From NCBI GenBank assembly GCA_964450385.1, contig CAYVEC010000008.1:3835-67834 (forward strand): a DNA stretch of 64,000 nt. Reading direction: 5' to 3'. The notes under the pieces are model-generated. The model saw only the letters and a list, made by a program, of their open reading frames with translations. It had not been told where the DNA came from and made no database searches. How positions within the stretch are numbered: the first letter of the stretch is position 1; each line of letters starts with the position of its first letter. Below, one piece after another: positions 1-28,205 of this stretch. The position numbers and the translations under genes were made by a program. The stretch comes from an uncultured Planctomycetales bacterium (GTDB lineage Bacteria > Omnitrophota > Gorgyraeia > Zapsychrales > JANLHA01).

Positions 1-1450
1 TTTCGGGATGAAATATTCTCTGCCCTCACGGGAGCTCATCGCGGACCAGATCGAGACGATCCTCTGTGCTCATCCTTGTGATGCCTGGATTGGGATCGGG
101 AACTGCGATAAGATCGTGCCCGGCATGCTCAATGCCATGGTGCGTGTGAATATCCCCGCGGTCTATGTGAGCGGGGGCCCGATGCTCTCGGGACTTGGCA
201 ACACGGACCTGATATCGGTTTTTGAAGGGGTGGGGAAAAATTCGGTTGGAAAAATGGGTGACAAAGAACTCTCTGAGCTTGCCCAGGTCGCCTGCCCAGG
301 ATACGGCAGTTGTTCAGGAATGTTTACCGCCAATTCAATGAACTGTATCGCGGAAGTCCTCGGTATTGCCCTTCCCGGGAACGGTTCGATCACGGCAACA
401 CAGCGGATCCCAGGTTCACGCCATCAGCATACCTTGAATCCTGAACGGATCAATTTGACCCGGCAGGCGGCTCGAACGCTGATTGAAGTGATGAACAAGA
501 AGGTCCGGCCCCTCGACATCATTACCCGGGAGGCGATCGATAATGCCTTTGTCCTTGACATGGCCATGGGCGGATCGAGCAATACGGTTTTGCATGTCCT
601 GGCTCTTGCGAGCGAGGCCGGGATCCCGTATGACCTGAATCGTCTCAACGAGCTCTCGAAGAGCACCGCGAATGTGGTCAAGATCGCGCCATCGCGCCCC
701 GAGGTCCATATCGAAGACGTTCATCGCGTCGGCGGAATGGGGGCGATCCTTAAATCGATCGCGGCCCACGGGCATCGCGCGTTAACGCTTTCTTCAAAGA
801 CGATCTATGGAACGCTCGGCGACTATGTCAATCGATCGCCTGATCCGGACGGTGAGATCATCCGAACGGTGCCCAAGGCGTTCTCACCCGAGGGAGGGCT
901 CACGATCCTGTTTGGAAATTTCGCGACTCGCGGCGCGGTTCTCAAAACAAGCGGCGTCGATCCGGACATGCTGACATTCCGCGGCCCGGCCCGGATCTTT
1001 GAATCCCAGGAGGAGGCCCTTGACGGCATCCTCCACGGCAAGGTCCACGACGGCGATGTGGTCGTGATCCGGTTCGAAGGCCCACGAGGCGGGCCTGGAA
1101 TGCAGGAGATGCTCTCGCCCACCTCCGCGATCAAGGGGGCTGGAATCCGAGCGGCGCTGATTACCGATGGACGGTTTTCCGGAGGGACGCGCGGGCTCTG
1201 CATCGGCCATGTTTCGCCTGAGGCAGCAGCGGGGGGCGAGATCGCGATCCTCCGGAACGGGGACATCATCGCGATCGATGTCGCGAAACGGGCGATGAAT
1301 GTCGAGCTGTCCGATACCGAGATCGCTCAACGCAAAAAGGCGCTCGTGCCGTTTAAAAGTAAGATCAAGGGCGGTTGGCTCGCCCGATATACCGCCTTTG
1401 TGACAAGCGCGGATACAGGGGCTGTGTTCCGCGACAGAATCGAGGGCTAA
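1..1450 (+). CDS. ilvD: dihydroxy-acid dehydratase, 5'-truncated by the window edge (C-terminal ~480 aa present)
   Basis: ORF 8..1450 has the IlvD/EDD family signature [18 protein letters not shown] and a C-terminal [16 protein letters not shown] motif. The reading frame is open to position 1, so the start lies upstream of the window. Confidence 0.8.
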
Positions 1451-1466
1451 CCAGGGGCCATCGTGT

Positions 1467-2282
1467 ATGGGCAAACGCATTCTGATTGTTGATGATGACA
1501 ATGATATCCTCACGTCAACGGCTCAGGTATTGCGAAAACACGGGTTTGAGGTGATGACGGCGCAGAGCGGCCGAACGGCCTTGAGCGTTCTTGAGCACAC
1601 CCTTCCGGATCTTGTCCTCACCGATGTCCTCATGCCGGATATTGATGGATTTTCCCTGTTTAAAAGTCTGAAGACCTGCCAACGCACCTCGCAGATCCCG
1701 GTTGTTATCGTGACCGGCCGCGGACAGATGAGGGATTCCTTTGCCGCGATCGGAGCCTGCGGGTTTTTAGCGAAACCGTTCACGCCTCAGGAATTGATCA
1801 GTCAGATCGAAGAGACGTTTTCCGTACGCCAGATGGCGCAGGCCGACGATACCGATGTGGGGCGCCAACAGATCCTCCTTGTTGGATCGGCGACGGCGCG
1901 TGATTTCGTGTCCACGACCGCGGATTTTATCCGTCAGGCCGGCTATCCGATCGCGGTCGCGACCTCTGTGGCGCAGGCCGCGGCAGCGGCGATCGACACC
2001 CCGATCGACATTGTATTAACCGATGTCCAGCTTGATAAGCCCGTCGCCGAGTTGGTCGCGATCCTGCGCGGTCTGCCATCGCATCCGGTCACAACGATTT
2101 TCGGTTTTTCGTACTATTCCATCGACGAACTCGATGCCGATGGCCAGCGCCGGCGTGTCCTTGCGATCGAATCCGCGGCCTTATCTTTTGTCAAGAGCGG
2201 CGGCACCGCGTATCTTGGCCGCTGGCATAATCAGCTCTTTTTAGATCTCTGCCGACAGAATTTTCAACCAAACGCGCCATGA
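1467..2282 (+). CDS. response regulator with tandem receiver domains (second REC degenerate), no output domain
   Basis: N-terminal REC has ILIVDDD...LVLTDVLMPDIDG...AKPF. The second half repeats the pattern (ILLVGS...IVLTDVQLDKP). Confidence 0.7.
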   Translation: MGKRILIVDDDNDILTSTAQVLRKHGFEVMTAQSGRTALSVLEHTLPDLVLTDVLMPDIDGFSLFKSLKTCQRTSQIPVVIVTGRGQMRDSFAAIGACGFLAKPFTPQELISQIEETFSVRQMAQADDTDVGRQQILLVGSATARDFVSTTADFIRQAGYPIAVATSVAQAAAAAIDTPIDIVLTDVQLDKPVAELVAILRGLPSHPVTTIFGFSYYSIDELDADGQRRRVLAIESAALSFVKSGGTAYLGRWHNQLFLDLCRQNFQPNAP

Positions 2283-2836
2283 CCCTCATATTAAAAAAAA
2301 TTATGGATCTTCCTTACAGAGCCGACCGGATGCGTGAGCTCCTCCTCATGGCCCGGGGCCTGGGGATCCCGGAACCGCGGTTGAAAATGTACGGCGAGGG
2401 CGATAAGGAGGAGGCCCTCGTGATCTTAATTTATGACACGCTCAAAAGTCACGCCGACCGTCGTCGAAAGAACCTTCGTTTTATCGCCCTTATTATGGTA
2501 GGGGCCGCGGTGATCATTGCCGGTCTTTTTCTCGTCCCGGCGACCTTTCGGTACCGTAAGGTCATCGATGTCGCCGAGGAAGAACGCAAGGAAACAGTCT
2601 ATACCGGCATCACGGCAGCTGGCGACGAGGTTCAGGATGAAAAGGCCCGCCCGGTTCTTTTCCGCGCCATGAGCGGTACGTATATTGAAGATGATGAGGA
2701 GGGGAACACCCTTTTTGAATATCTTTATGAAGACGGCCGAATGGTCAAAAAGAAAAAATATGCCCGGGATGGGAACGTCGAATCCGAAATCGAATTCAAC
2801 GAGGACGGAGACCCGATCTTGAAAACATTCAAATAG
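2279..2836 (+). CDS. hypothetical single-pass membrane protein with C-terminal MORN/YwqK-like repeat
   Basis: ATGA overlap with the upstream regulator. One hydrophobic TM segment (FIALIMVGAAVIIAGLFLV). C-terminus is YEDGRMVKKKKYARDGNVESEIEFNEDGDPI. Confidence 0.45.
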   Translation: MTLILKKIMDLPYRADRMRELLLMARGLGIPEPRLKMYGEGDKEEALVILIYDTLKSHADRRRKNLRFIALIMVGAAVIIAGLFLVPATFRYRKVIDVAEEERKETVYTGITAAGDEVQDEKARPVLFRAMSGTYIEDDEEGNTLFEYLYEDGRMVKKKKYARDGNVESEIEFNEDGDPILKTFK

Positions 2837-2852
2837 CAACAGGGACCGCATT

Positions 2853-3323
2853 GTGAAACGACCGCTCGGGGTGAGCGCCCTTTCCATTATCATGACCTGC
2901 GTGGGCAGTATTTTTTCCTTCGTCATTTTCATCGAGGTCCTTGATGCCCTGCGCGTCGGAGGGCTCTACGCGGTCACGATCTCTTCCCCCGTAGCCCTGG
3001 CGGGATTTTTCTTATACGGATGCCTGCCGGTGATCTTTTACTCTGCCGGGGTCGGGCTCTACATGTCCCGGGAATGGGCCCGGGCGCTCACCGTGAGCGT
3101 GGCGTGCCCCGCGATTTTTTTTCTCCTCCTGAACTTTGTCTACAATGCAATCAAGACCCAATATCGGCTCTACCACCTGAATGTGTTCGAATTTTATATT
3201 GAGAATCCGGTCCTGCTCATCGAAATCATTGCGGTTTATGCTGTCCTCGTTGCCCCGATTATCGTGTATCTCCGTCTCCCTCGGGTCAAAAGGTATTTTG
3301 CCGAGGTCCATCCCGTCCCCTAG
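2853..3323 (+). CDS. hypothetical polytopic membrane protein
   Basis: GTG start, 156 aa, about 4 hydrophobic helices. No recognisable motif. Confidence 0.45.
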   Translation: MKRPLGVSALSIIMTCVGSIFSFVIFIEVLDALRVGGLYAVTISSPVALAGFFLYGCLPVIFYSAGVGLYMSREWARALTVSVACPAIFFLLLNFVYNAIKTQYRLYHLNVFEFYIENPVLLIEIIAVYAVLVAPIIVYLRLPRVKRYFAEVHPVP

Positions 3324-3380
3324 GCCTTTTTTCCAGCGTCGGAATATGTTACACTTATACTGTCGTTGAAGGAGGGACCG

Positions 3381-3773
3381 ATGCGTCAGTTATACGTCGT
3401 GTTCATAATTTGCCTGGTCATGTTAGTGCCTGCCCTGGGAGAGGCCAGCCGCACTCCTCATCCCATTCAGCTCTTTGAACAGGCCACGGGCTGGCTTCAG
3501 GATGTCGATGACAATCCTGATCTTATGAAAAAATCCGTGTCGATCTTTGCCGATCTGATCGAGGAATATCCTACGTCACCTCTCGGATATTTAGGAATGA
3601 GTTATGTCTTTCGCCACATTGCCGACCTCGGGAACGACAAGTATGATATGCGGCAATTGCGGGACACGGCCTTTCCTTTTGCGGTTCAGGCCTTGCGTCT
3701 TGGGCCCACCCTGCCTGAGGTCCATGAGAATTATGCGTTCTTTCAACGGTTTTTTTCGATCGATCTAGAATAG
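3381..3773 (+). CDS. hypothetical secreted protein
   Basis: ATG at 3381 preceded by GAAGGAGGGACCG. N-terminal signal peptide LYVVFIICLVMLVPALGEA. Confidence 0.5.
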   Translation: MRQLYVVFIICLVMLVPALGEASRTPHPIQLFEQATGWLQDVDDNPDLMKKSVSIFADLIEEYPTSPLGYLGMSYVFRHIADLGNDKYDMRQLRDTAFPFAVQALRLGPTLPEVHENYAFFQRFFSIDLE

Positions 3774-3810
3774 CCGCGTGTTATTTCGTGTTAAAAAAGC
3801 CTGAATGTAT

Positions 3811-3838
3811 TTGATTTCACCCTTGCGATTGATATAAT
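3811..3838 (+). promoter_or_regulatory. candidate sigma-70 promoter (TTGATT-N16-TATAAT) for the REC-histidine kinase gene
   Basis: TTGATT at 3811-3816 and TATAAT at 3833-3838, about 10 nt before the ATG at 3848. Confidence 0.35.
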
Positions 3839-3847
3839 ACCATCGCT

Positions 3848-5098
3848 ATGAAAAATGATGACAAACTCGCCCCCGAAAGAGATTTCAAGCGGACCCTACA
3901 GGTCTTGATCGTCGAAAATAGCGAGATCGACCGACTCGTTCTCGTTAATATGTTGTCAAAAGTGCCCTATGGCTCATTTCAGATCAGTTCTGCGGACTCC
4001 CTGACCCAGGCCTTTCAGATCCTCAAAACAGCTCCGATCGATGTTGTTCTTCTCGACCTGAATATTCAGGATAGTAAAGGGATCGACACCCTCCGACGCC
4101 TCCATAAGCGCTACTCGCACATCCCGGTCGTTGTCAATACCGGTGAATACCAGGACGACCTCGGGCTCCTGGCTGTGACGATGGGCGCTCAGGACTATCT
4201 CATCAAGGGGATGTACAAGGCCTACGGCCTCGTTAAGGCCTTGTATTACGCGATCGAACGCAAGCGCGGTGAAATGGAACTACGGAATGCCCTTACTGAA
4301 TTAAAGGAAACACAGTCGCATCTCATCCGGGCTGAAAAAATGAATGTCCTCGGAGGGGTGGCGAGCGGCGTCGCCCATGAGGTGAAAAACCCCCTGGCCA
4401 CAATTCTCTATGGTGTCGAGTATCTCAACACCGCCCTGACCCAGCGGGATGACAAGATCGAGCTCACGCTCAAATCCATGCGTGAGGCGACTCTTAAGGC
4501 CAATGAGATCATTAAGGACCTATTGGATTTTTCAAGTATCACTGACCTCAAACAAGGCTGGTGCTCGGTCGAGGAGATCATTGAAAAGAGTCTCATGCTC
4601 ACCCACCATCAGTGCGAGAAGGGCCAGGTGACGGTCCAAAAAATTTTTGAGCCGGATCTCCCGAAGCTTTTTATCGACAGGAACCGGGTCGAGCAGGTGA
4701 TCGTGGACCTCATCCTTAATGCCCTGCTCGCGATGAAAGGGCTGGGCGGAGAGCTCGTGATCCGTGCCGCGCGCAAGCCGTTCGATGACGGGGATATCCG
4801 GACAACCGCCAATATCGATTCGAGCATAAAGAACGGGGATCCGGTCGTTATCATTGATCTCGAGGATTCAGGCAATGGGATCCCCGAACATGTTTTAGAT
4901 AAGATCTTCGATCCATTTTTCACGACTCGTCGCGCCGATGGAGGAGTGGGGCTCGGGCTCTCGATCGCCCGGACCATCATGTCAACCCATGACGGCATGA
5001 TCGACCTGTCGAACCGCACGCCGCGAGGGGCGCGGGCACGTTTGATCTTTAAACTTGAAGGGGACGCACGTGGAACGAAAGAACATTCTCATTATTGA
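3848..5098 (+). CDS. hybrid sensor histidine kinase (N-terminal receiver, HisKA, HATPase_c), cytoplasmic
   Basis: REC has VLIVENSE...VVLLDLNIQDSKG. H-box is VASGVAHEVKNPLATI. G-boxes are DSGNGIPEH and GGVGLGLSIARTI. Confidence 0.8.
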   Translation: MKNDDKLAPERDFKRTLQVLIVENSEIDRLVLVNMLSKVPYGSFQISSADSLTQAFQILKTAPIDVVLLDLNIQDSKGIDTLRRLHKRYSHIPVVVNTGEYQDDLGLLAVTMGAQDYLIKGMYKAYGLVKALYYAIERKRGEMELRNALTELKETQSHLIRAEKMNVLGGVASGVAHEVKNPLATILYGVEYLNTALTQRDDKIELTLKSMREATLKANEIIKDLLDFSSITDLKQGWCSVEEIIEKSLMLTHHQCEKGQVTVQKIFEPDLPKLFIDRNRVEQVIVDLILNALLAMKGLGGELVIRAARKPFDDGDIRTTANIDSSIKNGDPVVIIDLEDSGNGIPEHVLDKIFDPFFTTRRADGGVGLGLSIARTIMSTHDGMIDLSNRTPRGARARLIFKLEGDARGTKEHSHY

Positions 5099-5450
5099 TG
5101 ATGAGGTCGGATTCACCGAGATGGTCCGCCTCAATCTTGAGGCAACGGGCCGGTTTATCGTCAAGATCGAAAATGACCCCACAAACGCGGTCCGCGCGGC
5201 CATCATTTTTCGGCCTGACCTGATCCTCTTAGACGTCATCATGCCCAAAATGGAGGGCTCAGACGTCCTTTGCCAATTGCGTGATGATCCAGCGACCCAA
5301 AAAATCCCGGTCGTTTTTTTAACCGCGACGGTTCGAGGATCCGAGGTCACGGAAGAGGAGGGGCTCATCGGCGGGCATTATTTTATCGCGAAGCCCTGCA
5401 CGGTGGAGAATCTGATCTCGGTGATCGATGCGAATGTGCCCAGCGCGTGA
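5070..5450 (+). CDS. single-domain response regulator (CheY-like receiver)
   Basis: KNILIIDDE...LILLDVIMPKMEGSDV...KIPVVFLTA...AKP. Start is ambiguous: TTG at 5055 or GTG at 5070. Either overlaps the kinase 3' end. Confidence 0.65.
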   Translation: MERKNILIIDDEVGFTEMVRLNLEATGRFIVKIENDPTNAVRAAIIFRPDLILLDVIMPKMEGSDVLCQLRDDPATQKIPVVFLTATVRGSEVTEEEGLIGGHYFIAKPCTVENLISVIDANVPSA

Positions 5451-5506
5451 TCCCCTACAGTGTGCCTGTACTCAATTCATTGTGTTTCAGCTACTAGGAT
5501 AAACAG

Positions 5507-6259
5507 ATGCGTCAGTGGTGTGCCATCGTTTTGTGTCTTATCTTCTTAGGGATCTCAGGGACGACTCGCGCCAAAGAGCCAGGCAAGGATATTACCCTTG
5601 AGGTCGTGGATCCACGCATCGACACGGTTAATGGGGGCACGGCACTCTACCTCCGCACAATCCTCCACAATAATTCTCCGACAATAAAAATCGATATCAC
5701 CGGCGATCCCTCGATGACCCTCACGGACAATTTTAATAATGCCTATCGGGTCATTCGCACAGCAGCTGCAGACAAGGATCATCAGATACCGCGCTCACTC
5801 TATCCCGGAGGGTCGTTTGCAGTGCATAGTTGGTTTGAGCCGCCGGTTGAGGGGGCCACGGAGTTAACGGTCACCCTGACCCTGCCGGGGCCAGTCGAAC
5901 CCGTCGTTGGGCACGCAGTGCTCCCTGCGTCTCAGATCCCCAGGGCCACCGCAATCCCTGACGCTGACTTTGACTTTTTTATCGAGACGCCACAGCGTGG
6001 CGCCGCCGTTCGAGCAGGGAGCCAGATCGCCATCCGGATCATCCCGGTTGACTTTGCGGCATTTCCCGATAAAATACACATACTTGCGTTTAATTATGTA
6101 TTAACCGATGACCAGGCGATAGGAAATTACGAGATCCGCATCCCAGCGGATGTGCCGAGCGGCACTGAGGTCCCGGTCGTTATTATGGTCGAATGGGAAA
6201 CCGAAGGCCAGGAACCGCGGATACGTTCCAAGACAATTTCTCTTCGCGTTAGCAGCTGA
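5507..6259 (+). CDS. hypothetical secreted protein
   Basis: Signal peptide WCAIVLCLIFLGISGTTRA. 250 aa, beta-rich composition. Confidence 0.5.
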   Translation: MRQWCAIVLCLIFLGISGTTRAKEPGKDITLEVVDPRIDTVNGGTALYLRTILHNNSPTIKIDITGDPSMTLTDNFNNAYRVIRTAAADKDHQIPRSLYPGGSFAVHSWFEPPVEGATELTVTLTLPGPVEPVVGHAVLPASQIPRATAIPDADFDFFIETPQRGAAVRAGSQIAIRIIPVDFAAFPDKIHILAFNYVLTDDQAIGNYEIRIPADVPSGTEVPVVIMVEWETEGQEPRIRSKTISLRVSS

Positions 6260-6270
6260 ACACCTGTCTT

Positions 6271-7755
6271 ATGCATTTTTTGTATCAACGAGCCGCATTA
6301 ATTCTTCTTATCGCAGCTGGATTTTTTTTCGCGGCGGGGGGCTCGGCCCATGCCGAAGGCACGACGGATCCTGCTCAGTCGGCCCCGTTCATTCAGGCCG
6401 TGCAACATCTTAAGAACGATTGCGAAAATTCAGCAGCTCTCCAGGCGATTCTTGATGTCCTCAAGTCCGGCACGGAACGTCTGGATGATCCGAACCGGCA
6501 GGCATGGCTGCGGGTCTCGGATCAGTTTGATTATCTTGCATTTTTACAAGCTCGTGTCACCTTCTACCGCCAGAGCAACGAACGAATCCGCTCACAGCTG
6601 GTGGCGAACGGCGTGGCGATGATCCCCGAGGAAAAACTCGCCGCGGAACCTGCGTCAATAACGCCGGTTTTTCCCGATGGTTCCGCGGATGTGACGCTTT
6701 TTGACCGCGATCCCTCTGCCGGTCTGCCGGTTGACCGTGCCGCCGACGCGGTCCGCGATATTCAGCAACAGCTCGTGGCCCGCCTTGACCGTGTCCAGGA
6801 ACTGAATCAACGGCTGCGCGCATGCCAGCGCGAGCGGTATCAGACGCTGGCGGTCGAAACCCAGAATTCCGTGATGACAACGGATCGTTCTCTTGTCAAA
6901 ACGCTTGAAGAAAAAGAGGGCATTATCGATCAACAGCGGCAGCAGATCGAAGACCTCGAGAAGGGGTTTCAAGGGGTGCAGCATGAGGTGGGGGGGCTTC
7001 GGGACCAGATCGCGGATAATAATGAGCGCATCAAACAAATGACCGCTGATCTGGCCAGTCTCACGCTCACCTCGCATGAAAAAGATTTTGCCCTGGCTGA
7101 GCGCAACCAGCGGCTTCAGGACCTTGAGGCCACGGTCACGGAAACAACCGAACGCCTGCGGCTTGTTCAAAAAATCATTGCGGAAAAAGACACGTATATC
7201 CAGGACCTCGAACAACGGATCGATCAGATCGCCGCGATACCCACGAAGGCCACGTCTGTGACGGTCGATGACCTAAAGACCGAGGTCAATGAGATCCGAT
7301 CGTCGATGACGGATCAGGCCATGGCGCACGAGGAGCAGATCCTTGAACTTGCCGCTGCGGTTCAGCAGATGGCCGATCAATATGACGCCCTCAAGATCGA
7401 TGATTTTAAAAAGACGGTCATTATTCAAAAGATGCAGGGGCTTCTGGCTGAACGGTCCGATGAACTCGCCCGTACCCAGGCGCTCAGCACTTCGAAAGAC
7501 ACGGCCCTGATCCAGCTTCGGGAACGGGTCCGGCAATATCGCCTCAAGATCGCTGAACTGACCCTCCAATTAATAAAGTCCGACGGAAATGGTCGATTGA
7601 ATTCAGGCTCAAGCGATCGACGCGCTCAAGGCATCACCGAGGATAGCGAGCCGGCGGCGCGTGTCTCGGCGGTGGATCCGCTCCCTGCACTACCAGCCAT
7701 TTATGAAAGGACCGTTGCCCATGTGGAGAAACTCTTCCAGAATACCCAGCCCTGA
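6271..7755 (+). CDS. secreted long coiled-coil protein (TPR-like N-terminus, Pro-rich C-terminus)
   Basis: Signal peptide, then about 300 aa of heptad-like Q/E/L-rich sequence (DLEKGFQGVQHEV...LQDLEATVTETTERLRLVQKIIAEKD...). Confidence 0.5.
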   Translation: MHFLYQRAALILLIAAGFFFAAGGSAHAEGTTDPAQSAPFIQAVQHLKNDCENSAALQAILDVLKSGTERLDDPNRQAWLRVSDQFDYLAFLQARVTFYRQSNERIRSQLVANGVAMIPEEKLAAEPASITPVFPDGSADVTLFDRDPSAGLPVDRAADAVRDIQQQLVARLDRVQELNQRLRACQRERYQTLAVETQNSVMTTDRSLVKTLEEKEGIIDQQRQQIEDLEKGFQGVQHEVGGLRDQIADNNERIKQMTADLASLTLTSHEKDFALAERNQRLQDLEATVTETTERLRLVQKIIAEKDTYIQDLEQRIDQIAAIPTKATSVTVDDLKTEVNEIRSSMTDQAMAHEEQILELAAAVQQMADQYDALKIDDFKKTVIIQKMQGLLAERSDELARTQALSTSKDTALIQLRERVRQYRLKIAELTLQLIKSDGNGRLNSGSSDRRAQGITEDSEPAARVSAVDPLPALPAIYERTVAHVEKLFQNTQP

Positions 7756-9272: not shown

Positions 9273-9292
9273 ATGTTTAGTTTGTTAAACAT
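9273..9292 (+). promoter_or_regulatory. 20-bp palindrome ATGTTTA-N6-TAAACAT, candidate enhancer (UAS) for the downstream sigma-54 promoter
   Basis: Perfect inverted half-sites, 86-105 bp upstream of the -24 element. The same half-sites and spacing recur at 59422-59441. Confidence 0.5.
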
Positions 9293-9376
9293 TATATTAT
9301 AAAAAGCGTTTTTAGTCGCGAATATCATTAAATTTTCGAAATTATTCAGAATTCGATACAAAATAATGATTCTTTC

Positions 9377-9391
9377 TGGCATTTATTTTGC
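9377..9391 (+). promoter_or_regulatory. sigma-54 (-24/-12) promoter TGGCAT-N5-TTGC
   Basis: GG at 9378-9379 and GC at 9390-9391 with the canonical 12-nt GG-to-GC offset. About 25 nt upstream of the ATG at 9417, inside a 157-bp AT-rich intergenic region. Confidence 0.55.
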
Positions 9392-9416
9392 TTTACCCAT
9401 GTAAAGGGCAAAAAAA

Positions 9417-10796
9417 ATGACAAATAGTTTACTAATTAAAATATGCAAAATCGCGCTGATAAGCCTTTTTTCGCTGATTATCTGGAATGCGAGAGCAGAG
9501 GCTTCAATAAGTTTGGATGCGACCCCAATCCAAGGCGGCACAACACTGCGTTTCGGACGGATGGATGTCCTTGAGGGGGCGAGTAAAGAAGTTCGTGTTC
9601 GGATCAACACGAGCGAAACGACCCAGTATCAGGTCTTTCAGCAGATGATCCAGCCGATCACGTCCACGCAAGGCCGGCTGGCTGATTCCAGCCTATTGCA
9701 ATACTATGCCCTGCCCGGATCCAATTCCAGCGGGACGCTTTATGGCCAAGTCCCGCAAGGGGTATCACGCGCCGAAGAGCTCGTGTATTCGTCATCAGGG
9801 AACGGATCAAGCGACCGTTTTGTTCTGGTTTTTAATGTGAATCAAAACCTGCTGGATGATGGCGGGGAATATTCAGGCCAACTTTTACTCACACTTCGTC
9901 CGATCGGTCCTGGCTCGACCGAGCAGGTCTACATCAATGTGGTGATCGATGCGGAGGTCGATCAGTCGATCCGCTTTAATGATGCGCGAAGCTCAATTGA
10001 GCTCTCGACACTGCGAGCAGATCAAATGCAGGCGGATCTGAGCCTCTCCTTTGAGGTGAATGGCGGCATCAAGCTCTACCAGGAGATTGTCCAGGTCCCG
10101 GTCCATGAGCAGGGGGGGCATGACCTTGATCTTGGCGCCGTGCTCCTGACCGTTGCCGGTGAGGATCCGGCCGGACAAACGCACGTGGCTCCCGGCGAGG
10201 CCCTCACCCTGCAACGGCAATTGATCTTTGAAACCTCAACCTCGAGCGGTACGTGTCATCTCATGTACCAGATCGATCCCGACCGAGCAGAATCTCTTTC
10301 TGCCGGGCGGTATCGTGGACTCGTCCGTTATTACATTCAGACGCGGCGGGGCGAGGAAATTCTTGAAAAATATTTATCAGTTCATGTAGAGCCCATCTTT
10401 AGTATCCAGGTGTCTTTCCCTGATGGGCCGCTCTTCTTTAAGAATTTATTGCCAGGCGGCGCGCCCATGTTTTATTCCGTCGTTGCAACAGTTCAGACGA
10501 ACTTGGGTCGGCCGTATCAGGTCACACAGGAAATGGTCTCGCCGATGGTGAATGAAAAAGGGGATCCATTAGATCTGGACAACTTTTTGATTAGAACCGA
10601 GCTGTTGGAAGATTCTACGGGGAAAATTCAGCATTCGGACTTTGTGCCGTTTGCCCGGACTCGGGGGACGTTGTTCCTCTCGGACGCGGCAGGGTCGCCG
10701 GCTGAATTTCGCGTACTCTACCAAGTGAAGCCGTACAGCACCATGATCCCGGGGAACTACGCCTCGGAAATCCGTTATTCACTTGGTGAGATGTAA
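9417..10796 (+). CDS. secreted two-domain protein, candidate tip/adhesin-like fibre subunit
   Basis: Signal peptide IALISLFSLIIWNARAEA. C-terminus GNYASEIRYSL has the alternating-hydrophobic pattern of donor-strand-accepting pilins. No family assignment is possible by eye. Confidence 0.4.
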   Translation: MTNSLLIKICKIALISLFSLIIWNARAEASISLDATPIQGGTTLRFGRMDVLEGASKEVRVRINTSETTQYQVFQQMIQPITSTQGRLADSSLLQYYALPGSNSSGTLYGQVPQGVSRAEELVYSSSGNGSSDRFVLVFNVNQNLLDDGGEYSGQLLLTLRPIGPGSTEQVYINVVIDAEVDQSIRFNDARSSIELSTLRADQMQADLSLSFEVNGGIKLYQEIVQVPVHEQGGHDLDLGAVLLTVAGEDPAGQTHVAPGEALTLQRQLIFETSTSSGTCHLMYQIDPDRAESLSAGRYRGLVRYYIQTRRGEEILEKYLSVHVEPIFSIQVSFPDGPLFFKNLLPGGAPMFYSVVATVQTNLGRPYQVTQEMVSPMVNEKGDPLDLDNFLIRTELLEDSTGKIQHSDFVPFARTRGTLFLSDAAGSPAEFRVLYQVKPYSTMIPGNYASEIRYSLGEM

Positions 10797-10842
10797 TTCC
10801 CTGCTCGATCGTATACATGATGGTTAACCAGAAGGAGGTTTT

Positions 10843-11463
10843 ATGAAAAAACTCAACCCCATATGTATCGTTGCCTTGACGGTCGCGATGATCGTCAGCG
10901 CAACAACAGTGTGGGCCGCAGAGCAGGCGTTCCCGATTGCTGTCAGCATTCCGGCCGCCACCGCTGTGACCTTCACTGTCAGCAAAGTTACCGGGACAAC
11001 CTGGGCAACTAACAACTACAACCTGGAGTTCGGGCAGCTCGATTTCGAACCGGTGAATAAGATCTTTACTGCACCGTTTTATTTCGCGATCGATCTTGGT
11101 TCGAACGGAACAGGCGCCGGGGTGCCGGATGAGATCAAACTTACCTATAGTGAGTCATCCAATCCCAACAGCGTCGCGGGTACTGGCCGCCGAGGGCTCG
11201 GTTACAAAAGTGTCGTGACCGTTGCGAAGGCGATTGAAGACAGCGCGGACTCTGTGCTGCACAAGGTCCTGTTGCAAAAAGTCGGTTCCATTGACGCCTT
11301 GGATAAGACGTCATTCGTCGGCGGTTGGCCGCGTGTTTATGTCGGCATCTATGACGGCAACGCGAAAAACAGCAGCGGCGATGCAGATGAGGAGCTCTTT
11401 ACCCTCGAAGACGCGCCCGGTGATTATCTCGGCGTTTTAACGATTACAGCGATTGTGAACTAA
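10843..11463 (+). CDS. secreted ~200-aa protein, candidate major fibre/pilin-like subunit (SCPU/Csu-like)
   Basis: Strong SD (AGGAGG). Signal peptide ends VWA. Post-signal alternating segment IAVSIPAATAVTFTV. C-terminal GDYLGVLTITAIVN resembles the chaperone-usher pilin F-strand motif. Confidence 0.4.
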   Translation: MKKLNPICIVALTVAMIVSATTVWAAEQAFPIAVSIPAATAVTFTVSKVTGTTWATNNYNLEFGQLDFEPVNKIFTAPFYFAIDLGSNGTGAGVPDEIKLTYSESSNPNSVAGTGRRGLGYKSVVTVAKAIEDSADSVLHKVLLQKVGSIDALDKTSFVGGWPRVYVGIYDGNAKNSSGDADEELFTLEDAPGDYLGVLTITAIVN

Positions 11464-11476
11464 CATTAGGGAAAAA

Positions 11477-11524
11477 AGAGGCACCTGTTTGTGGACTGTG
11501 TACAGCACCGCGACAGGTGCCTCT
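11477..11524 (+). other. intercistronic stem-loop (12-bp perfect GC-rich stem, 24-nt loop) with no following U-tract
   Basis: AGAGGCACCTGT (11477-11488) pairs with ACAGGTGCCTCT (11513-11524). It lies immediately after the putative subunit gene. Confidence 0.5.
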
Positions 11525-11559
11525 TGAAACATGGTTCGAACACAACGAAAGAAGCTCCA

Positions 11560-12402
11560 ATGGCCTTAAAACGGATCGGATATTTGCTCGGATTCCTCGT
11601 GGTCTGGCAGTGCGCTCAGACAGGCCCGCTTTATGCACAGGTCTTGGTTCAAGAAGGCAAGATCAAAGAAGCCCTAATGCCCGGGCAAAAAAAGGCAGGG
11701 GTCATTACGATCCATAACACATCGAATGAGCCAATCGATATCCGGTCTTATTTTGAAGATTTTAAATATGAGGAGCCCTTTCGTGGGAAAAAAGAATTCC
11801 TTGCCGCCGGAAGCGCCCAAGACTCATGCAGCGCCTGGATCAAATTTTATCCTCAGAATTTTTCCCTGGCCCCGTTCGCAAAAGAGGAGATCAACTACAC
11901 GATCAGCTTTCCAGATGATGCTCAGGGCGGGTATTACTGTGTTCTCTTTTTTGAGAAGTCATTGGGGACGATCCGGCCAGCCGGCAATGATCCAGCGGAT
12001 GTATCTCAGCCCGGCGTCTCGGTGGTGGCTCGGGTCGGCACTCTTTTTTTTCTTGAGTCCTCAGCCCGAAAAAAAACAATCCAGGTGGATGACCTTAGAT
12101 TTGAGCAATCGACATTGACGGGCTCCGTTACAAACACCGGTGATGTCACGCTTGTCATTAAGCCGATCTATTATTTAATCAGCACGAATGGCGTTCCGAG
12201 TGACCGTGGAGAACGCGAGAAGATATACCTTCCGGCCGGAGAGACCACTAAATTTGATGTCCCGATGTCGGATCAATTAGCAGAGGGGCGGCACGATCTT
12301 GTGATCACCTTTGATCTCGAAGACGGGATTTCGCATGTCGTTGAAGGAAAGATTAACCGGTCACGTCAAGAAGGATTCTCAATAACGAATATTCGGCAAT
12401 AG
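11560..12402 (+). CDS. secreted two-domain beta-rich protein, candidate periplasmic chaperone-like component
   Basis: Signal peptide ALKRIGYLLGFLVVWQCAQTGPLYAQV. Beta-strand-like segments GVITIHNTSNEPIDIRSYF and VTLVIKPIYYLIS. The start may instead be upstream at 11491 in the same frame. Confidence 0.35.
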   Translation: MALKRIGYLLGFLVVWQCAQTGPLYAQVLVQEGKIKEALMPGQKKAGVITIHNTSNEPIDIRSYFEDFKYEEPFRGKKEFLAAGSAQDSCSAWIKFYPQNFSLAPFAKEEINYTISFPDDAQGGYYCVLFFEKSLGTIRPAGNDPADVSQPGVSVVARVGTLFFLESSARKKTIQVDDLRFEQSTLTGSVTNTGDVTLVIKPIYYLISTNGVPSDRGEREKIYLPAGETTKFDVPMSDQLAEGRHDLVITFDLEDGISHVVEGKINRSRQEGFSITNIRQ

Positions 12403-12439
12403 CTGGACCGGGAGTGATGGGCAACTACAACTGGAAACA

Positions 12440-15328
12440 ATGAACGCGCGATCAATTATTGTTATTGGAATCATGTGTCTTGTCGCCACTGTGAGTGATC
12501 TCCCGGGAGGCACGCAAGAGGCCTGTGCCCAGTACACGAATATCTTTCATTCGTATATGACCCAGGGGAAAGAGGCCCTCGAAGAAGGCCGCTACCAGGA
12601 TGCACTGCTCTTTTTTGAGACTGCGCAGATCGTTAGCCCCGGAGACGCTGAGCTCAATCAGTATCTAAATCTTGTCAAGCGTCACATTGAGGATCGGATT
12701 CAGGGCGCTCCGATCCAACCCGCAAAGAGTCGAAGCGTTCCCGCTGATGTCCCAGCTGCCACGTCGTATAAAGAAGCAGCCCGTGTTTCGGCCAGCGCGG
12801 ATCCCCGTCCGGCACTTGGGTCGAGACCGAAACCCGCGATCACGCGTGTGTCTCCTGAACCGGATGTGACAACACCTATCCTTGATCTGCCGCCGCAGGA
12901 TCAGACCCCGGTTGCCGCCACCCCGAATGTCGCGCTCCCATACCAAAAAAATTTTAAAACGATCGCTCTTGACCTCGACGCGACACTCTGGGCATCACAG
13001 CCCAATACCCTTCTTGAGATCCCGTTAAATACAAAAGTCCTTGTCCGGTCGACTGCGACCATTGAACGGTATCTGGTGATCATCCCGGACCAGATCGCGG
13101 TGGAACGGGTGAGCCATAGCGAGATTATCCTGACACCGCTCAAGCGCGGCCAGACATTTTTTCACCTCTGGGACAGCAATGACCAGCGCTGGACATTCAA
13201 TATCGCGAACGTCCTGCCGCTGTCCGAGCAGAACATCTTCGACGTTAGCGAACCTCAGCGCCAGACGTCCTTTGACAATTTCAAAATCACCTATGACACC
13301 TCCTGGAACTCGTTTTATACCGGGCCTAGTAAAAGCGATGTCGACAGGGACTCGATGCTGTTTCGAAATACATTCGGCATCTATGGGCCGACACCCTATG
13401 GCCGCGTTGACGGAAGCATCACGTATAGTCGAACCGATATCGAACCCACGAAGGCCAAGGATTATACGGCAGGGATCACCGAGGGATATATCGGCCCACT
13501 GAAGGATTTTTCGCTCAGGATCTTCGATGCGCAGAGGGAGCTCTCGCCGCTTACGTTGCCGGGCCAGGTCTTTCGCGGGGCCCTCTATGAAGATAGTTTC
13601 GGGGATGGCACGTTTGACCTGACCCTATTGCGCGGCCAGGCGCGTCTTACGTATGGCCCGATCGCCCCAGGGCTGAGTCTGAGCGATGACACCTATGTCG
13701 AGGGCGGACGAATTCAATATAATCTCCCGGAGAGCAAAGATCTCGTTGCGGTGAACTATGCACATTCTTGGGGCGACGATCGATCTAGCGAGGCCAAGGA
13801 CAAGGCCTATTCTGCGGAATACGAGAAACAACTGGGCGAGTATACCCGGTTTTTTTCTGAGGTCGCCCATGACGAGGATGAGACCGCGTATCGATTGCGA
13901 ACCAAATATCAAGAAGGCCGGGACCGTTTTGAGCTCCGTTTTCGTGATATCCCGGCGGAATACGGCACCGCCATGGGAACACCGATCAATCAAGGGGAAA
14001 TCGGCACCGAGATGTCGTGGGGCACGGATTGGCACGCCTTTCAACTCTCCTCATATTTAGATGTGTACCGTGACCACAGCCTGGAGAATCCGGAAGATCC
14101 CGATGCCTTGAACACCGACTTCTCATTGTCTGCCTATCGCCCTCTGCCGGGGAAAGCGGCATGGCGGACCGACGCCTATTTTTATCACACGCCCGGGCTT
14201 ATCTCTGATGAGATTGATTATCGATTGAGCTCAACCCTTTCAAAGAATTTCTCCATATTTGGGAAAAACCTGTATAACTATCTGACGGGCAGTGTCCATC
14301 AAAAACGTTCCGACTCCAATCCCCAGACGGATTATGACCGAAACAGTGTGACCCTGGGGATGAATTATCCGCTAACAAAGAAACTCCGTCTCTTCATGAA
14401 TTATGACCTCTACTGGATCACCGATCGGGGAGGGGACAATAGTGAGAGCCATCCTGAGGCCCTGACCACAAATCTGATCTACAGTCACTCGTTTAACGAG
14501 GAGTGGCGCCTCGAGTCGAGCATCTCGTATCGCGATGAGGAACGGACCGAAGGCAGCAAAACCTTTTTAGCCGGCGAGGACAGCCTGAGTACCGGTCTGA
14601 ATCTCTCCTATTTCCCGACACCTGACTTAAGCATCTATCTGGATGGCCGGGTGCGCGACGTTTGGACGGAAAAAAATACACAGGATGCTTATACTGAATG
14701 CGATGTCCGTTTTGGGGTCCGGTCAACCTGGGATACGGGACTGTCCTGGAATCCGCAGGGAATTGTAAATGGCTATGTCTTTAAGGACGTTAACATGAAC
14801 GGCCAGCGTGATGCAGACGAACCCGGCATCGGAGGCGTTACGGTCCGGATCGGTGAGACCTCGGCCTTGACAGACCGGACCGGATGGTATTATGCCGATG
14901 TGCGCGCCGCCTCGGTCTTGATCACCCCTGATGTCCAGACGATCCCAACGGGATATATCTTTAAAGAGACGAGCGGGGCGCGCTATACCATCGGTCATGG
15001 ATCCGCGATCACCCATGATATCGCCTTGACATCAAACTCAGGGATCTTCGGCGTGGCCTTCGTTGATGCGAATGGCAACGGCACACCCGAGGCGGATGAA
15101 CAAAAGCTCCGTTCGGTTCGCGTCCTGGTGAATCGTGAGTTTGAATACGTCACGGATTCTCGCGGCGCGTATTTTGTCACGGATCTGAAGGCAGGTCAGC
15201 ATGATCTTGCGATTGATTTAGGATCGATCCCGATGGAATTTCTTCCAACCATTCCGCTCACGGCAACCATCACGATCGATGAAGGTACAACCTACATCTT
15301 TAACATCCCTGTCCAGCCGAAGAAATAA
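12440..15328 (+). CDS. 962-aa outer-membrane protein: signal peptide, TPR-like region, Pro-rich linker, pilus-formation-N (T2SS/T3SS pil_N)-like domain, predicted beta-barrel, two C-terminal Cna-B/SdrD-B-like domains
   Basis: LDLDATLWASQPNTLLEIPLNTKVLVRS...VIIPDQIAVERVSHSEIILTPLKRGQTFFHLWD matches the CpaC/RcpA N-domain pattern. There are many amphipathic aromatic-ended strands (LFMNYDLYWITD, LNLSYFPTPDLSIYLDGRV). C-terminal NGYVFKDVNMNGQRDADEPGIGGVTVRI and VDANGNGTPEADEQKLRSVRVLV are Cna-B-like. Confidence 0.45.
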   Translation: MNARSIIVIGIMCLVATVSDLPGGTQEACAQYTNIFHSYMTQGKEALEEGRYQDALLFFETAQIVSPGDAELNQYLNLVKRHIEDRIQGAPIQPAKSRSVPADVPAATSYKEAARVSASADPRPALGSRPKPAITRVSPEPDVTTPILDLPPQDQTPVAATPNVALPYQKNFKTIALDLDATLWASQPNTLLEIPLNTKVLVRSTATIERYLVIIPDQIAVERVSHSEIILTPLKRGQTFFHLWDSNDQRWTFNIANVLPLSEQNIFDVSEPQRQTSFDNFKITYDTSWNSFYTGPSKSDVDRDSMLFRNTFGIYGPTPYGRVDGSITYSRTDIEPTKAKDYTAGITEGYIGPLKDFSLRIFDAQRELSPLTLPGQVFRGALYEDSFGDGTFDLTLLRGQARLTYGPIAPGLSLSDDTYVEGGRIQYNLPESKDLVAVNYAHSWGDDRSSEAKDKAYSAEYEKQLGEYTRFFSEVAHDEDETAYRLRTKYQEGRDRFELRFRDIPAEYGTAMGTPINQGEIGTEMSWGTDWHAFQLSSYLDVYRDHSLENPEDPDALNTDFSLSAYRPLPGKAAWRTDAYFYHTPGLISDEIDYRLSSTLSKNFSIFGKNLYNYLTGSVHQKRSDSNPQTDYDRNSVTLGMNYPLTKKLRLFMNYDLYWITDRGGDNSESHPEALTTNLIYSHSFNEEWRLESSISYRDEERTEGSKTFLAGEDSLSTGLNLSYFPTPDLSIYLDGRVRDVWTEKNTQDAYTECDVRFGVRSTWDTGLSWNPQGIVNGYVFKDVNMNGQRDADEPGIGGVTVRIGETSALTDRTGWYYADVRAASVLITPDVQTIPTGYIFKETSGARYTIGHGSAITHDIALTSNSGIFGVAFVDANGNGTPEADEQKLRSVRVLVNREFEYVTDSRGAYFVTDLKAGQHDLAIDLGSIPMEFLPTIPLTATITIDEGTTYIFNIPVQPKK

Positions 15329-15331: not shown

Positions 15332-15571
15332 CTAATCGGCCACAACGGTTTGCAAGACCACTGCCCGACCATCACGGATGGCGCGTGATTCCTGCATCCT
15401 GAGCGGCGAAGCCGCAGTGTTGTCAGCCAGATCCATCTCGTGTGGGAAATAGTTTAAGCCGAGAAGACGAGGGATCCTGACCGAGACAGTGAAGTTCTGG
15501 GTGTCCGCGAGTGCCAGTGGTGCGACGACTAGGGTGAAAAGGGCGATCAGAAAAAGAATCTTTCTAATCAT
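15332..15571 (-). CDS. small secreted hypothetical protein (79 aa)
   Basis: Strong SD on the minus strand (GGAAAGGAGCCAAC-ATG). Signal peptide ILFLIALFTLVVAPLALA. Confidence 0.45.
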   Translation of the reverse strand: MIRKILFLIALFTLVVAPLALADTQNFTVSVRIPRLLGLNYFPHEMDLADNTAASPLRMQESRAIRDGRAVVLQTVVAD

Positions 15572-15597
15572 GTTGGCTCCTTTCCGAGCCCATCATG

Positions 15598-15628
15598 AAA
15601 AAACCCTTCGACATTTGAAGGGTTTTTT
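15598..15628. terminator. bidirectional rho-independent terminator hairpin (A-tract/stem/T-tract)
   Basis: AAAAAACCCTTC-gacattt-GAAGGGTTTTTT. Perfect stem flanked by A6 and T6. Confidence 0.6.
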
Positions 15629-15929
15629 CGTTAACGGAACTCTCGTTTAGATCGAGTTACGGTAGCCTGACGACCATATCCCCACATGGCTAAGGACTTA
15701 GGTTCACGGCTTTGTGCCCTACTCTTTCGAGTAGTTTACCTTTCAAATTGTCACTTAAAGTATAACATCCTGTTTTCGAGCAATGCAAACCAGGTGGGCC
15801 GGGAAATCGAATTTTTATCAGGTGTTAAAAAATCCAATTTTAGTGTAAAGCATTGATGTATATTGTGTTATAGTAATGCGGATTTAAAAGGAGAAAACGC
15901 TTTCTTTTTTTAACAAAAAAAGGTGGTAT

Positions 15930-23387: not shown

Positions 23388-24455
23388 ATGATTAAGCCCG
23401 ACCAGTATTCAAAGGCGAAGATCCTCATCATCGATGACCAAAAGCTGCATCATCTTTACCTTGAAAAAATCCTTCACACGGCAGGGTTCCAAAGCATCCG
23501 ATGTCTCGCGGACCCGTTAAAGGCCCATGCCACGGTTCTTGAATTTAATCCCGACCTCATCGTCCTTGATATCCTCATGCCTCAGCTCGACGGGTTCCAG
23601 ATCATGGAGCAGCTCCATACTTTCCGTCAACGACACTATCTCCCGATCCTTGCAGTCTCAGCAGAGCAAAGTACCGACTTCCGGCTTAAGGCCCTGCGCG
23701 CCGGCGCCACGGATTTTCTCCATAAGCCCTTTGAGCATGACGAGATCATTTTTCGCATCAACAACATGTTAGAGATGCGGTTTCTCCACATGGCCCTCGA
23801 AAACCAAAACCACATCCTCGAAGATCGTGTGAACGAGCGAACGAAAGAATTAAAGAATTCACAGATCGAGATCATCCGCCGCCTCGCCCAGGCTGCTGAA
23901 TTCCGTGATAACGATACTGGGGCCCACATCATCCGCATGAGCCATTATTGCGCGGCCCTCGGACGGGCCATGGGCCTGAGCCCCGCGGATGTCGAACTCA
24001 TTCTCACAGCCAGCCCGCTCCACGATATCGGCAAGATCGGCATCCCGGACAGCATTCTCCTTAAACCAGGGAAATTGTCGCCCGAAGAATTCGAGATCAT
24101 GAAAACGCACACCACGATCGGCGCCCAGCTTTTAGCCAGCGCTAATTCCCCTGTCATGAAGATGGCCCAGGTCATCGCGCTCACCCATCATGAGCACTGG
24201 GACGGTTCCGGCTATCCCAGAGGTCTCAAAGGGGACCAGATCCCGCTCATCGGCCAGATCTGCAGTGTCTGCGATGTATTTGACGCCCTGATCTCTGAGC
24301 GGCCGTATAAACAGCCCTGGACACCCCAGCAGGCCGCACAAGAGATCATCAGTCAAAAAAACAAACAATTTAAGCCTGAATTGATCGATCAATTTGAATT
24401 GATCCTGCCCGAATTCATAAAAATCACCACGGAATGTCATAACCCCGGCGTTTAA
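23388..24455 (+). CDS. response regulator with HD-GYP c-di-GMP phosphodiesterase output domain
   Basis: REC (ILIIDDQ...LIVLDILMPQLDG). HD-GYP motifs HDIGKIGIPD and HHEHWDGSGYP. Confidence 0.85.
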   Translation: MIKPDQYSKAKILIIDDQKLHHLYLEKILHTAGFQSIRCLADPLKAHATVLEFNPDLIVLDILMPQLDGFQIMEQLHTFRQRHYLPILAVSAEQSTDFRLKALRAGATDFLHKPFEHDEIIFRINNMLEMRFLHMALENQNHILEDRVNERTKELKNSQIEIIRRLAQAAEFRDNDTGAHIIRMSHYCAALGRAMGLSPADVELILTASPLHDIGKIGIPDSILLKPGKLSPEEFEIMKTHTTIGAQLLASANSPVMKMAQVIALTHHEHWDGSGYPRGLKGDQIPLIGQICSVCDVFDALISERPYKQPWTPQQAAQEIISQKNKQFKPELIDQFELILPEFIKITTECHNPGV

Positions 24456-24490
24456 AAAAACATCTCGGGACTTTTTTTTAGATAAAATCA

Positions 24491-24520
24491 TGTTATAGTA
24501 TTTTATACTATTTTATACTA
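24491..24520. repeat. three tandem ~10-bp units (TGTTATAGTA, then TTTTATACTA twice) immediately upstream of the hybrid kinase gene
   Basis: Perfect 2x decamer at 24501-24520 preceded by one degenerate copy. Each contains a TATACT -10-like hexamer. Confidence 0.5.
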
Positions 24521-24534
24521 CGTGATCACTGTCG

Positions 24535-27236: not shown

Positions 27237-27256
27237 TATGGACAAAGGAGACCGAC

Positions 27257-27841: not shown

Positions 27842-27862
27842 ATGAATGGATGAGACCTGACG

Positions 27863-28204: not shown

Positions 28205-28205
28205 G

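Follow-up and report, generated by a model that had tools for sequence, protein, structure and literature searches.

A palindromic module upstream of two sigma-54 promoters as a candidate activator site for surface genes in an uncultured Omnitrophota bacterium

The DNA considered here is a 64,000-nucleotide stretch of contig CAYVEC010000008.1 (assembly GCA_964450385.1, positions 3,835 to 67,834 of the forward strand) from an uncultured Planctomycetales bacterium that GTDB places in the Omnitrophota; we call the whole stretch the window and count coordinates from its first letter. Two copies of the palindrome ATGTTTA-N6-TAAACAT, 50 kb apart, lie upstream of the only two strict sigma-54 promoter matches in the window, one in front of a four-gene, fiber-like cluster and the other in front of an operon for exopolysaccharide (EPS) export that is divergent from rpoN. 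Our analysis suggests that the palindromes are upstream activating sequences (UAS) through which a bacterial enhancer-binding protein (bEBP) would control both operons.

Palindromes and sigma-54 promoters in the window

The two proposed UAS, neither of which is assigned a strand, occupy 9273-9292 (palindrome 1; ATGTTTAgtttgtTAAACAT) and 59422-59441 (palindrome 2; ATGTTTAttcaaaTAAACAT). Exact copies of ATGTTTA-N6-TAAACAT number two in the 64-kb window, against 7e-5 expected from its base composition and 5e-5 expected when the local base composition of the intergenic DNA is used; a search for the 20-mer with up to two mismatches returned the same two sites and none further in the window, and dinucleotide shuffles gave a mean of 0.06. 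Both dyad/promoter pairs sit in the window's two most AT-rich intergenic regions (GC content, 0.26 and 0.39), and palindrome 1 begins 14 nt past the stop codon of a protease gene. A weak, putative second copy of the dyad (TGTTTTCATAATTTAACA; 59286-59303, no strand assigned), with two mismatches, lies 136 nt upstream of palindrome 2, and the related locus L016 (loci from other genomes and contigs are given here by L numbers) has a second copy with one mismatch at 7418-7435, 80 nt upstream of its main dyad. An Rfam scan gave no match in either leader region.

Sigma-54 promoter 1, TGGCAT-N5-TTGCT (TGGCATttattTTGC, TGGCATttattTTGCT), spans 9377-9392 on the plus strand, with its GG at 9378-9379 and its GC at 9390-9391, and lies 25 nt 5' of the ATG at 9417; promoter 2, TGGCAC-N5-TTGCT (TGGCACagcctTTGC, TGGCACagcctTTGCT), spans 59540-59555, also on the plus strand, with GG at 59541-59542 and GC at 59553-59554. 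In both, the GG and GC elements are 10 nt apart and the promoter is on the strand of the downstream gene. On the two strands of the window, TGGCAY-N5-TTGC has these two matches only (0.26 expected), and allowing up to one mismatch to TGGCAC-N5-TTGCW still gives the same two sites only in 64 kb. Each palindrome is paired with one of these promoters, the gap from palindrome end to promoter start being 84 nt at site 1 and 98 nt at site 2; with the transcription start placed about 12 nt 3' of the promoter GC, the predicted dyad centers fall at approximately -120 and -134, respectively.

The window also contains rpoN itself (57719-59137, minus strand), whose product matches the Pfam domains Sigma54_AID, Sigma54_CBD, and Sigma54_DBD and which is divergent from the EPS operon. 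The first-pass annotation of this DNA had reported identical 7-bp half-sites with a 6-bp spacer at the two positions, about 100 bp upstream of TGGCAT-N5-TTGC at 9377 and TGGCAC-N5-TTGC at 59540, and had placed rpoN at 57719-59137. The palindromes are present exactly as described, the promoters proved to be the sole strict matches, and the rpoN coordinates are correct. A sigma-54-promoter-like element (TGGTATACTTTTTGC) at 59180-59195 on the minus strand, about 45 nt upstream of the rpoN start, is kept in L016, L027, L057, and L080. We considered that rpoN might be under its own sigma-54 promoter sharing the UAS, with TGGTATACTTYTTGC kept in five loci, and rejected this on the evidence of a further relative, L007, which has TGATATACTTTTTTC upstream of rpoN. 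Because L007 has lost the GG and the GC and has kept TGnTATACT, the element is better read as a putative extended -10 sigma-70 promoter.

The two operons and the rest of the window

Promoter 1 faces a cluster of four plus-strand genes (9417-15328) whose order is kept in at least eight contigs. The first (9417-10796) encodes a 459-amino-acid (aa) protein whose N terminus carries a hydrophobic stretch resembling a signal peptide (by eye) and which matches no family; it has 12 homologs, whose genes are in every case followed by the other three of the cluster, and one named homolog comes from an Omnitrophica metagenome-assembled genome (MAG). The second (10843-11463) encodes a 206-aa protein, also with a signal-peptide-like N terminus and without a family match, which is a candidate fiber subunit; the position of this gene is kept in L042-L045 and L081-L084. 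The third (11491-12402, probable start ATG at 11560) encodes a 303-aa pilus-chaperone-like protein with two beta-sandwich domains. Its AlphaFold model has a predicted local distance difference test score (pLDDT) of 82.3 and a predicted template modeling score (pTM) of 0.72, and a Foldseek search of the PDB matched it to CfaA, EcpB, Caf1M, FimC, CsuC, and the enterococcal WxLIP with E values of 1e-11 to 1e-8; CupB2 and SafB were matched as well, and the template modeling scores over the whole set were 0.4-0.6. The fourth (12440-15328) encodes a 962-aa protein, probably the outer-membrane assembly platform, with a C-terminal SdrD B-like domain (SdrD_B, 44.1 bits against a cutoff of 29.7) and weak, subcutoff matches of the secretin/pilus-N and beta-barrel kinds (T2SS-T3SS_pil_N, SlipAM, and OMP_b-brl); we infer an usher role for it. 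Like chaperone-usher pili, the cluster encodes a two-domain, PapD-like periplasmic chaperone, as judged from the model of the 303-aa protein; unlike them, it showed neither a PF00577 usher nor a known pilin family in family scans of the four proteins. "Fiber-like cluster" is a fair description of 9417-15328, though the canonical usher and pilin families are unmatched.

On the minus strand, a unit at 15332-15750 converges on the end of the fiber-like cluster: a cyclic di-GMP (c-di-GMP)-I riboswitch at 15658-15750 (72.8 bits, the sole Rfam match in the window) is followed by a terminator-like hairpin and then by a 79-aa open reading frame at 15332-15571 with a signal-peptide-like N terminus. The same riboswitch (65.4 bits) stands at the same position in L042 (12046-12488, minus strand) before an 87-aa gene, and L043 has an 89-aa gene there. 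There appears, then, to be a second, c-di-GMP input at the fiber locus.

The first gene after promoter 2 (59654-59848, plus strand, as are the following genes) encodes a 64-aa MerR/BldC-like winged-helix-turn-helix protein lacking a dimerization helix; it matches Pfam MerR_1 (4.8e-11), its best NCBIfam match is the BldC family, and its PDB matches are MerR N-terminal domains and BldC (6ama). It is followed by a polysaccharide export protein with Poly_export and SLBB domains (59888-60847), whose best NCBIfam match is TIGR03027, the EPS export family of XrtA/PEP-CTERM systems (93 bits against a cutoff of 180); by a XrtA/PEP-CTERM-system-associated ATPase-like protein (60916-61782; full-length match to TIGR03015, 302.7 bits against 324.5; Pfam AAA_22); and by a XrtA-system-type chain-length determinant of the Wzz/GNVR kind (61724-63088; TIGR03007, 228.3 bits against 278.85; Pfam GNVR and Wzz). 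The proposed operon extends from 59654 to the end of the window and, going by best family matches that all lie below the curated cutoffs, is of the XrtA/PEP-CTERM-system type. No PEP-CTERM C terminus was found in the window, and family scans of all its large frames after the first eight (1-7755) gave neither an exosortase nor a bEBP match.

The approximately 44 kb between the two loci are taken up mostly by central metabolism (citrate synthase, fumarase, aconitases, Rnf, ThiC) and signaling genes, including a phosphorelay. Signaling genes are dense in the window: at 23388-28598, 32947-33267, and 53854-55968 lie those for an HD_5-domain response regulator (HD-GYP-like by reading), a hybrid kinase bearing both Hpt and receiver domains, an Hpt protein, two receivers of the single-domain type, a protein with a PilZ domain, and a cNMP-binding, patatin-like protein. 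Several of these, like the riboswitch, may point to c-di-GMP signaling.

Conservation of the module and the candidate regulator

The genes of the window share 71-77% DNA identity with L007, from a Candidatus Omnitrophota MAG, and also match the Omnitrophota MAG loci L027 and L016, so that on sequence grounds, too, an Omnitrophota bacterium is the most likely source. For site 2, seven loci of Omnitrophota type were aligned: the window, L007, L016, L023, L027, L057, and L080. Their intergenic DNA is unalignable except for four islands, namely, a TGTCC/GGACA repeat, the TGTTTA and TAAACA half-sites, TTGGCAY-N5-TTGC, and the ribosome-binding site. The half-sites are invariant in 7/7 loci, TGGCAY-N5-TTGC is likewise kept in all seven, and L007 carries a 20-mer identical to palindrome 2. 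The 18-bp core lies 99-108 nt from the promoter across the seven loci. In each of the six relatives (with duplicates L047, L067, L070, and L077) the module is followed by the MerR-like and export genes, and at least L007, L016, and L027 share with the window a divergently oriented rpoN. In the window the first island is the repeat GGACAG-N4-GGACAG at 59404-59419 (no strand assigned), directly 5' of palindrome 2; such GGACAG/TGTCC repeats, exemplified by TGTCCTGGACA in L016 and L027, are kept in six of the seven aligned loci and are absent from L023 and from site 1. The MerR/BldC-like protein, or else some other factor, may bind there.

At relatives of site 1 the geometry is the same and a base is changed in the half-sites. 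In L045 and L081/L082, where the first-gene products are 36-38% identical and the same DegP-like protease gene lies upstream, the homologous genes are preceded by TGGTAT-N5-TTGCT (L045) or TGGCAC-N5-TTGCT (L081/L082), 14-25 nt from the start codon, and the dyads TGTTGATAATTATCAACA and TGTTGATAAAAATTAACA lie about 70-77 nt upstream of the promoter. These dyads are of the form TGTTGA-N6-TCAACA or TGTTGA-N6-TTAACA. Both half-sites of the L045 dyad carry the identical change, as would be expected if a dimeric reader had altered its specificity.

Beyond these loci, one genome per species was scanned for TGTTTA-N6-TAAACA followed, after a gap of 77-107 nt, by TGGCA-N6-TTGC, which gave 41 loci, six of them in Omnitrophota MAGs, and a scan of metagenome contigs with a stricter pattern gave 35, for 76 pattern loci together. 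We estimate that uniform base composition would yield a few to about ten chance matches and AT-rich genomes more, so that between a handful and a few tens of the scan loci may be due to chance. The dyad and promoter precede a gene for a PEP-CTERM protein in L011 (TIGR02595, above cutoff), an exosortase gene in L076 (TIGR02602, 125.7 bits against a cutoff of 105.55), a gene for a PilB/GspE ATPase with an MshEN domain in L021, genes for MshEN-like proteins in L040, L049, and L069, a gene for an inverse-autotransporter-like protein in L029, and, in six or more distinct sequences, the MerR-like/EPS operon. On two low-GC contigs, L053 (457-1071) and L058 (450-968), the module stands before genes for proteins of 172-204 aa that have no NCBIfam match and contain a Fis-type helix-turn-helix (HTH)-like segment, GNVTRASRIL (by eye); these could be small regulators under the same control.

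A bEBP gene adjoins the site in 9 of the 76 pattern loci, and most of these nine bEBPs are PrpR_N- or PAS-type activators of catabolic operons from other phyla. Loci of this kind with both dyad and sigma-54 promoter are L003, L017, L033, L075, L059, L062, and L065; the downstream genes there, to judge from a reading of their N-terminal sequences, look like those for indolepyruvate oxidoreductase, an aminotransferase, butyrate kinase, and Fe-S and molybdopterin enzymes. The recurrence of the dyad beside bEBP genes suggests that this type of dyad is widely used by Fis-type HTH domains. In L078 (652-2010, a metagenome contig), ATGTTTAGTTTGTTAAACAT, which is identical to the site 1 20-mer, and TGGCAT-N5-TTGCT precede a gene for a 390-aa bEBP without a C-terminal HTH, followed by genes for acetyl coenzyme A synthetase, a TetR protein, and electron transfer flavoprotein.

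A bEBP gene of a different kind is found in L050 and its longer relatives L085 and L086, whose source we take to be one organism or close relatives. Here the gene for a REC-AAA+-HTH_8 bEBP diverges from a Poly_export gene that is followed by TPR and giant adhesin-like genes, and the shared intergenic region has sigma-54 promoters in both directions and a dyad that is perfect in L050 and that occurs twice in L085, 21 bp apart, with one mismatch per copy. Among named proteins, those closest to the L050/L085 bEBP come from Omnitrophota. One relative, P0124, is encoded on a 1.6-Mb Omnitrophota contig (locus L087) in the order T2SSF, exosortase, EpsI, sugar transferase, three PEP-CTERM genes, TPR, GAF histidine kinase, bEBP, PocR/GAF, and rpoN, and the operon starting with the sugar transferase gene has the promoter TGGCAT-N5-CTGCT. 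AtoC gives the candidate bEBPs their highest scores, with NtrC or PrsR second, all below the curated cutoffs; on TIGR02915 (PrsR) they score 408-413 bits (P0124, 408; P0017, 410), where the cutoff is 502.6. The kinase linked to them, a soluble GAF kinase, scores 91 bits against 300 on TIGR02916, and on these scores we rejected an assignment of the candidates as PrsR and PrsK. The linked TPR protein gave no match to PrsT (TIGR02917).

Interpretation and comparison with known systems

The best explanation of these observations is that the two palindromes are UAS for one dimeric bEBP of the NtrC/AtoC/PrsR kind with a Fis-type HTH, encoded outside the window and co-controlling both operons; we put its probability at roughly 0.7. 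The first-pass annotation had proposed a UAS geometry, a single sigma-54 regulon comprising the fiber-like cluster and the EPS operon, and a governing bEBP encoded outside the window. The first of these gains weight from dyads that are symmetric, centered near -120 and -134, and kept at orthologous promoters while the flanks diverge, and the second is supported by the conservation of dyad and promoter together with their association with surface genes and bEBP genes. The third agrees with our searches of the window, in which no GAFTGA-type motif was found in six frames and no sigma-54 AAA+ match was obtained by phmmer in frames of at least 100 aa. That the module fronts PEP-CTERM, exosortase, and type II/IV secretion ATPase genes in relatives points to a regulon that is a cell-surface/matrix program of the exosortase/PEP-CTERM type. 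What is shown is the sequence elements with their rarity, conservation, and gene associations; that a protein binds the dyads in this genome, that transcription requires rpoN, and which regulator and signal are at work are inferred. In the proposed mechanism, a partner kinase would phosphorylate the activator, which would oligomerize on the dyad via its Fis-type HTH; sigma-54 holoenzyme would be held in a closed complex on TGGCAY-N5-TTGCT, some 100 bp farther downstream, until the activator contacts it through looping of the AT-rich intervening DNA, and ATP hydrolysis by the activator would then open the promoter. The fiber-like cluster (9417-15328) and the MerR/BldC-like and EPS export genes (from 59654) would in this way be switched on together.

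Several observations weigh against this explanation. The dyad also adjoins unrelated PrpR_N- and PAS-type bEBPs in Clostridia and other bacteria, and because of this the dyad sequence alone names no regulator. The 20-mer in L078 that is identical to palindrome 1 fronts a bEBP lacking an HTH. In L087, the locus with the exosortase genes and a candidate bEBP, the dyad lies 115 nt upstream of the promoter and is degenerate: there are two copies, and each has a single good half-site. Among the site 2 orthologs the distance from dyad to promoter varies by 9 nt, so that helical phase is not kept. In the distant fiber-cluster homologs L042, L043, L044, L083, and L084 the dyad and the sigma-54 promoter are both missing, and the promoters look sigma-70-like (by eye). 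Finally, the scans demanded a promoter 77-110 nt from the dyad, and the constant spacing and the nearness of bEBP genes are therefore partly built into their results.

The palindromes might have another origin or another reader. That they are chance AT-rich inverted repeats, or weak terminator hairpins of the upstream genes, could be suggested by their location in the most AT-rich intergenic DNA of the window and by the short distance from the protease stop codon to palindrome 1. Chance is at odds with the expectation of 5e-5 from local composition, with the shuffle mean of 0.06 even when two mismatches are allowed, and with half-sites that are invariant in seven genomes despite diverged flanks. 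The RNA hairpins have energies of only -4.7 kcal/mol (palindrome 1) and -4.3 kcal/mol (palindrome 2), and because they are so weak we rejected terminators and RNA hairpins as an explanation; neither is followed by a T-run (by eye), and palindrome 2 follows no gene on its own strand. Chance and termination are effectively refuted. It is unlikely, too, that the dyad is bound by some other dimeric factor, such as a repressor, an anti-activator, or a nucleoid-associated protein, with no role in sigma-54 activation. Conservation does mark a functional site and not the protein that reads it, the distance to the promoter is not phase-locked, and L087 keeps its sigma-54 promoter with a degenerate dyad. 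Yet, apart from the TGTCC/GGACA repeat, which is specific to site 2, the dyad is the only conserved element at -80 to -150, the zone that an activator-dependent promoter would need; its 6-N6-6 geometry, TGT-N12-ACA, is unlike the TGT-N10-ACA of CRP/FNR/NtcA-type sites; and it recurs beside bEBP genes of several architectures.

The main rival reader is the 64-aa MerR/BldC-like protein: the dyad could be its operator, acting on its own operon and in trans on the fiber-like cluster, with the bEBP binding elsewhere or lacking an HTH. In every EPS locus its gene comes directly after the dyad and promoter, a MerR_1 gene is also found upstream of the fiber cluster in L042, and bEBPs without an HTH exist, as the one behind the identical 20-mer in L078. 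Against this, the 64-aa protein is a bare MerR N-terminal domain without a dimerization helix and with BldC as its best family match, and BldC recognizes direct repeats in a head-to-tail arrangement and not dyads; a more suitable site for it would be the neighboring TGTCC/GGACA repeats. The dyad also precedes promoters without a nearby MerR-like gene (L011, L021, L040, and L076) or with a bEBP gene instead (L050 and L085), and the Omnitrophota bEBPs do carry HTH_8 domains. MerR-type operators lie within the promoter spacer, and a center at -120 to -134, the classical bEBP position, is unlike them. We consider this assignment distinctly unlikely and prefer the Fis-type bEBP as the reader of the dyad.

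If a bEBP does read the dyad, a broader role may be considered. Omnitrophota are mostly uncultured and in part host-attached nanobacteria, and TGTTTA-N6-TAAACA with its sigma-54 promoter might be an Omnitrophota-wide attachment/matrix switch, an independently evolved counterpart of the Prs system. A cytoplasmic GAF-kinase/bEBP pair encoded beside rpoN and exosortase genes would co-activate five targets, namely, EPS export, exosortase and PEP-CTERM proteins, a chaperone-usher-like fiber (which would be previously undescribed), secretion ATPases whose MshEN domains would bind c-di-GMP, and a BldC-like secondary regulator, with c-di-GMP riboswitches as the second input at the fiber locus. We offer this extension tentatively and consider it somewhat more likely to be wrong than right.

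In its layout the module resembles a classical NtrC/AtoC-type UAS, in which dyads lie 100-150 bp upstream of TGGCAC-N5-TTGCW. It shares with that arrangement the position of the dyad, the tandem copies in some loci (for example, those 21 bp apart in L085), and, in L050 and L085, an activator gene that is itself preceded by a site and a sigma-54 promoter; the half-site differs from that of the NtrC site, TGCACC-N5-GGTGCA, and to our knowledge also from those of other characterized bEBP sites. The TyrR/PhhR boxes, TGTAAA-N6-TTTACA, have the same 6-N6-6 spacing, TGT...ACA frame, and AT-rich core and are likewise read by the C-terminal HTH of a bEBP-family protein; the half-site here is TGTTTA, not TGTAAA. 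TyrR-type regulators have ACT/PAS N termini and control aromatic amino acid genes, and nothing here points to a protein of that type. In our literature search, no paper was found that reports TGTTTA-N6-TAAACA as a bEBP site, and among the papers listed none connected Omnitrophota with PEP-CTERM, exosortase, or sigma-54.

Omnitrophota are almost wholly uncultured, so that their regulation can be read only from sequence. A searchable cis-module allows a surface, adhesion, and EPS regulon to be listed genome by genome, and it gives an unannotated four-gene fiber cluster with a pilus-chaperone-like protein a context in an EPS/exosortase program. What results is a clean regulon prediction in an uncultured phylum, with a logic that a sigma-54 specialist would expect. 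The predicted regulon of EPS export, surface protein sorting, fibers, and secretion ATPases fits the general, cross-phylum theme of sigma-54 as a controller of the bacterial exterior set out in excerpts of Francke et al. (2011; PMC3162934), which cover neither this dyad nor Omnitrophota.

The closest parallel is the box upstream of proteobacterial PEP-CTERM genes described by Haft et al. (2006; PMC1569441). Its motif 1, 17 nt long with TTTACA at its end, is sometimes repeated and lies in long intergenic regions, where a sigma-54 promoter follows after 32-92 nt (mean, 63). The motif was assigned to PrsR/PrsK/PrsT by phylogenetic profiling and was reported in Proteobacteria only; the authors expected other motifs or regulators elsewhere. 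Dependence on rpoN has been shown for pepA of Aquincola tertiaricarbonis (PMC9850573). Measured against that account (PMC1569441), both systems have a conserved motif upstream of a -24/-12 sigma-54 promoter in long intergenic regions and, as proposed reader, an NtrC-family REC-AAA+-Fis-HTH regulator encoded near exosortase, TPR, and kinase genes; the weaker second dyad copies 80-136 nt upstream of the main ones recall the repeated motif 1. The targets, too, appear to belong to the exosortase/PEP-CTERM/EPS system, for the window going by best matches below the cutoffs and for relatives by the PEP-CTERM protein in L011 and the exosortase in L076. The two differ in that the element described here is an 18- to 20-bp dyad, TGTTTA-N6-TAAACA, and not a 17-nt motif ending in TTTACA (a comparison made with the text description), in a spacer of 84-98 nt (99-108 nt from the 18-bp core in the site 2 loci) against a mean of 63 nt, values at or beyond the upper end of the published 32-92 nt, and in occurring in Omnitrophota instead of Proteobacteria. 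In addition, the candidate bEBPs and the soluble GAF kinase fall below the cutoffs of TIGR02915 and TIGR02916, and the targets in the window are a MerR-led EPS export operon and a fiber-like cluster, not single PEP-CTERM genes. The module thus appears to work like the PEP-CTERM box system but is not a member of it, because the motif sequence, the equivalence to PrsR and PrsK, and the taxon all differ. It nominates a specific class of two-component activator, and its control logic can be set beside that of the proteobacterial PEP-CTERM box.

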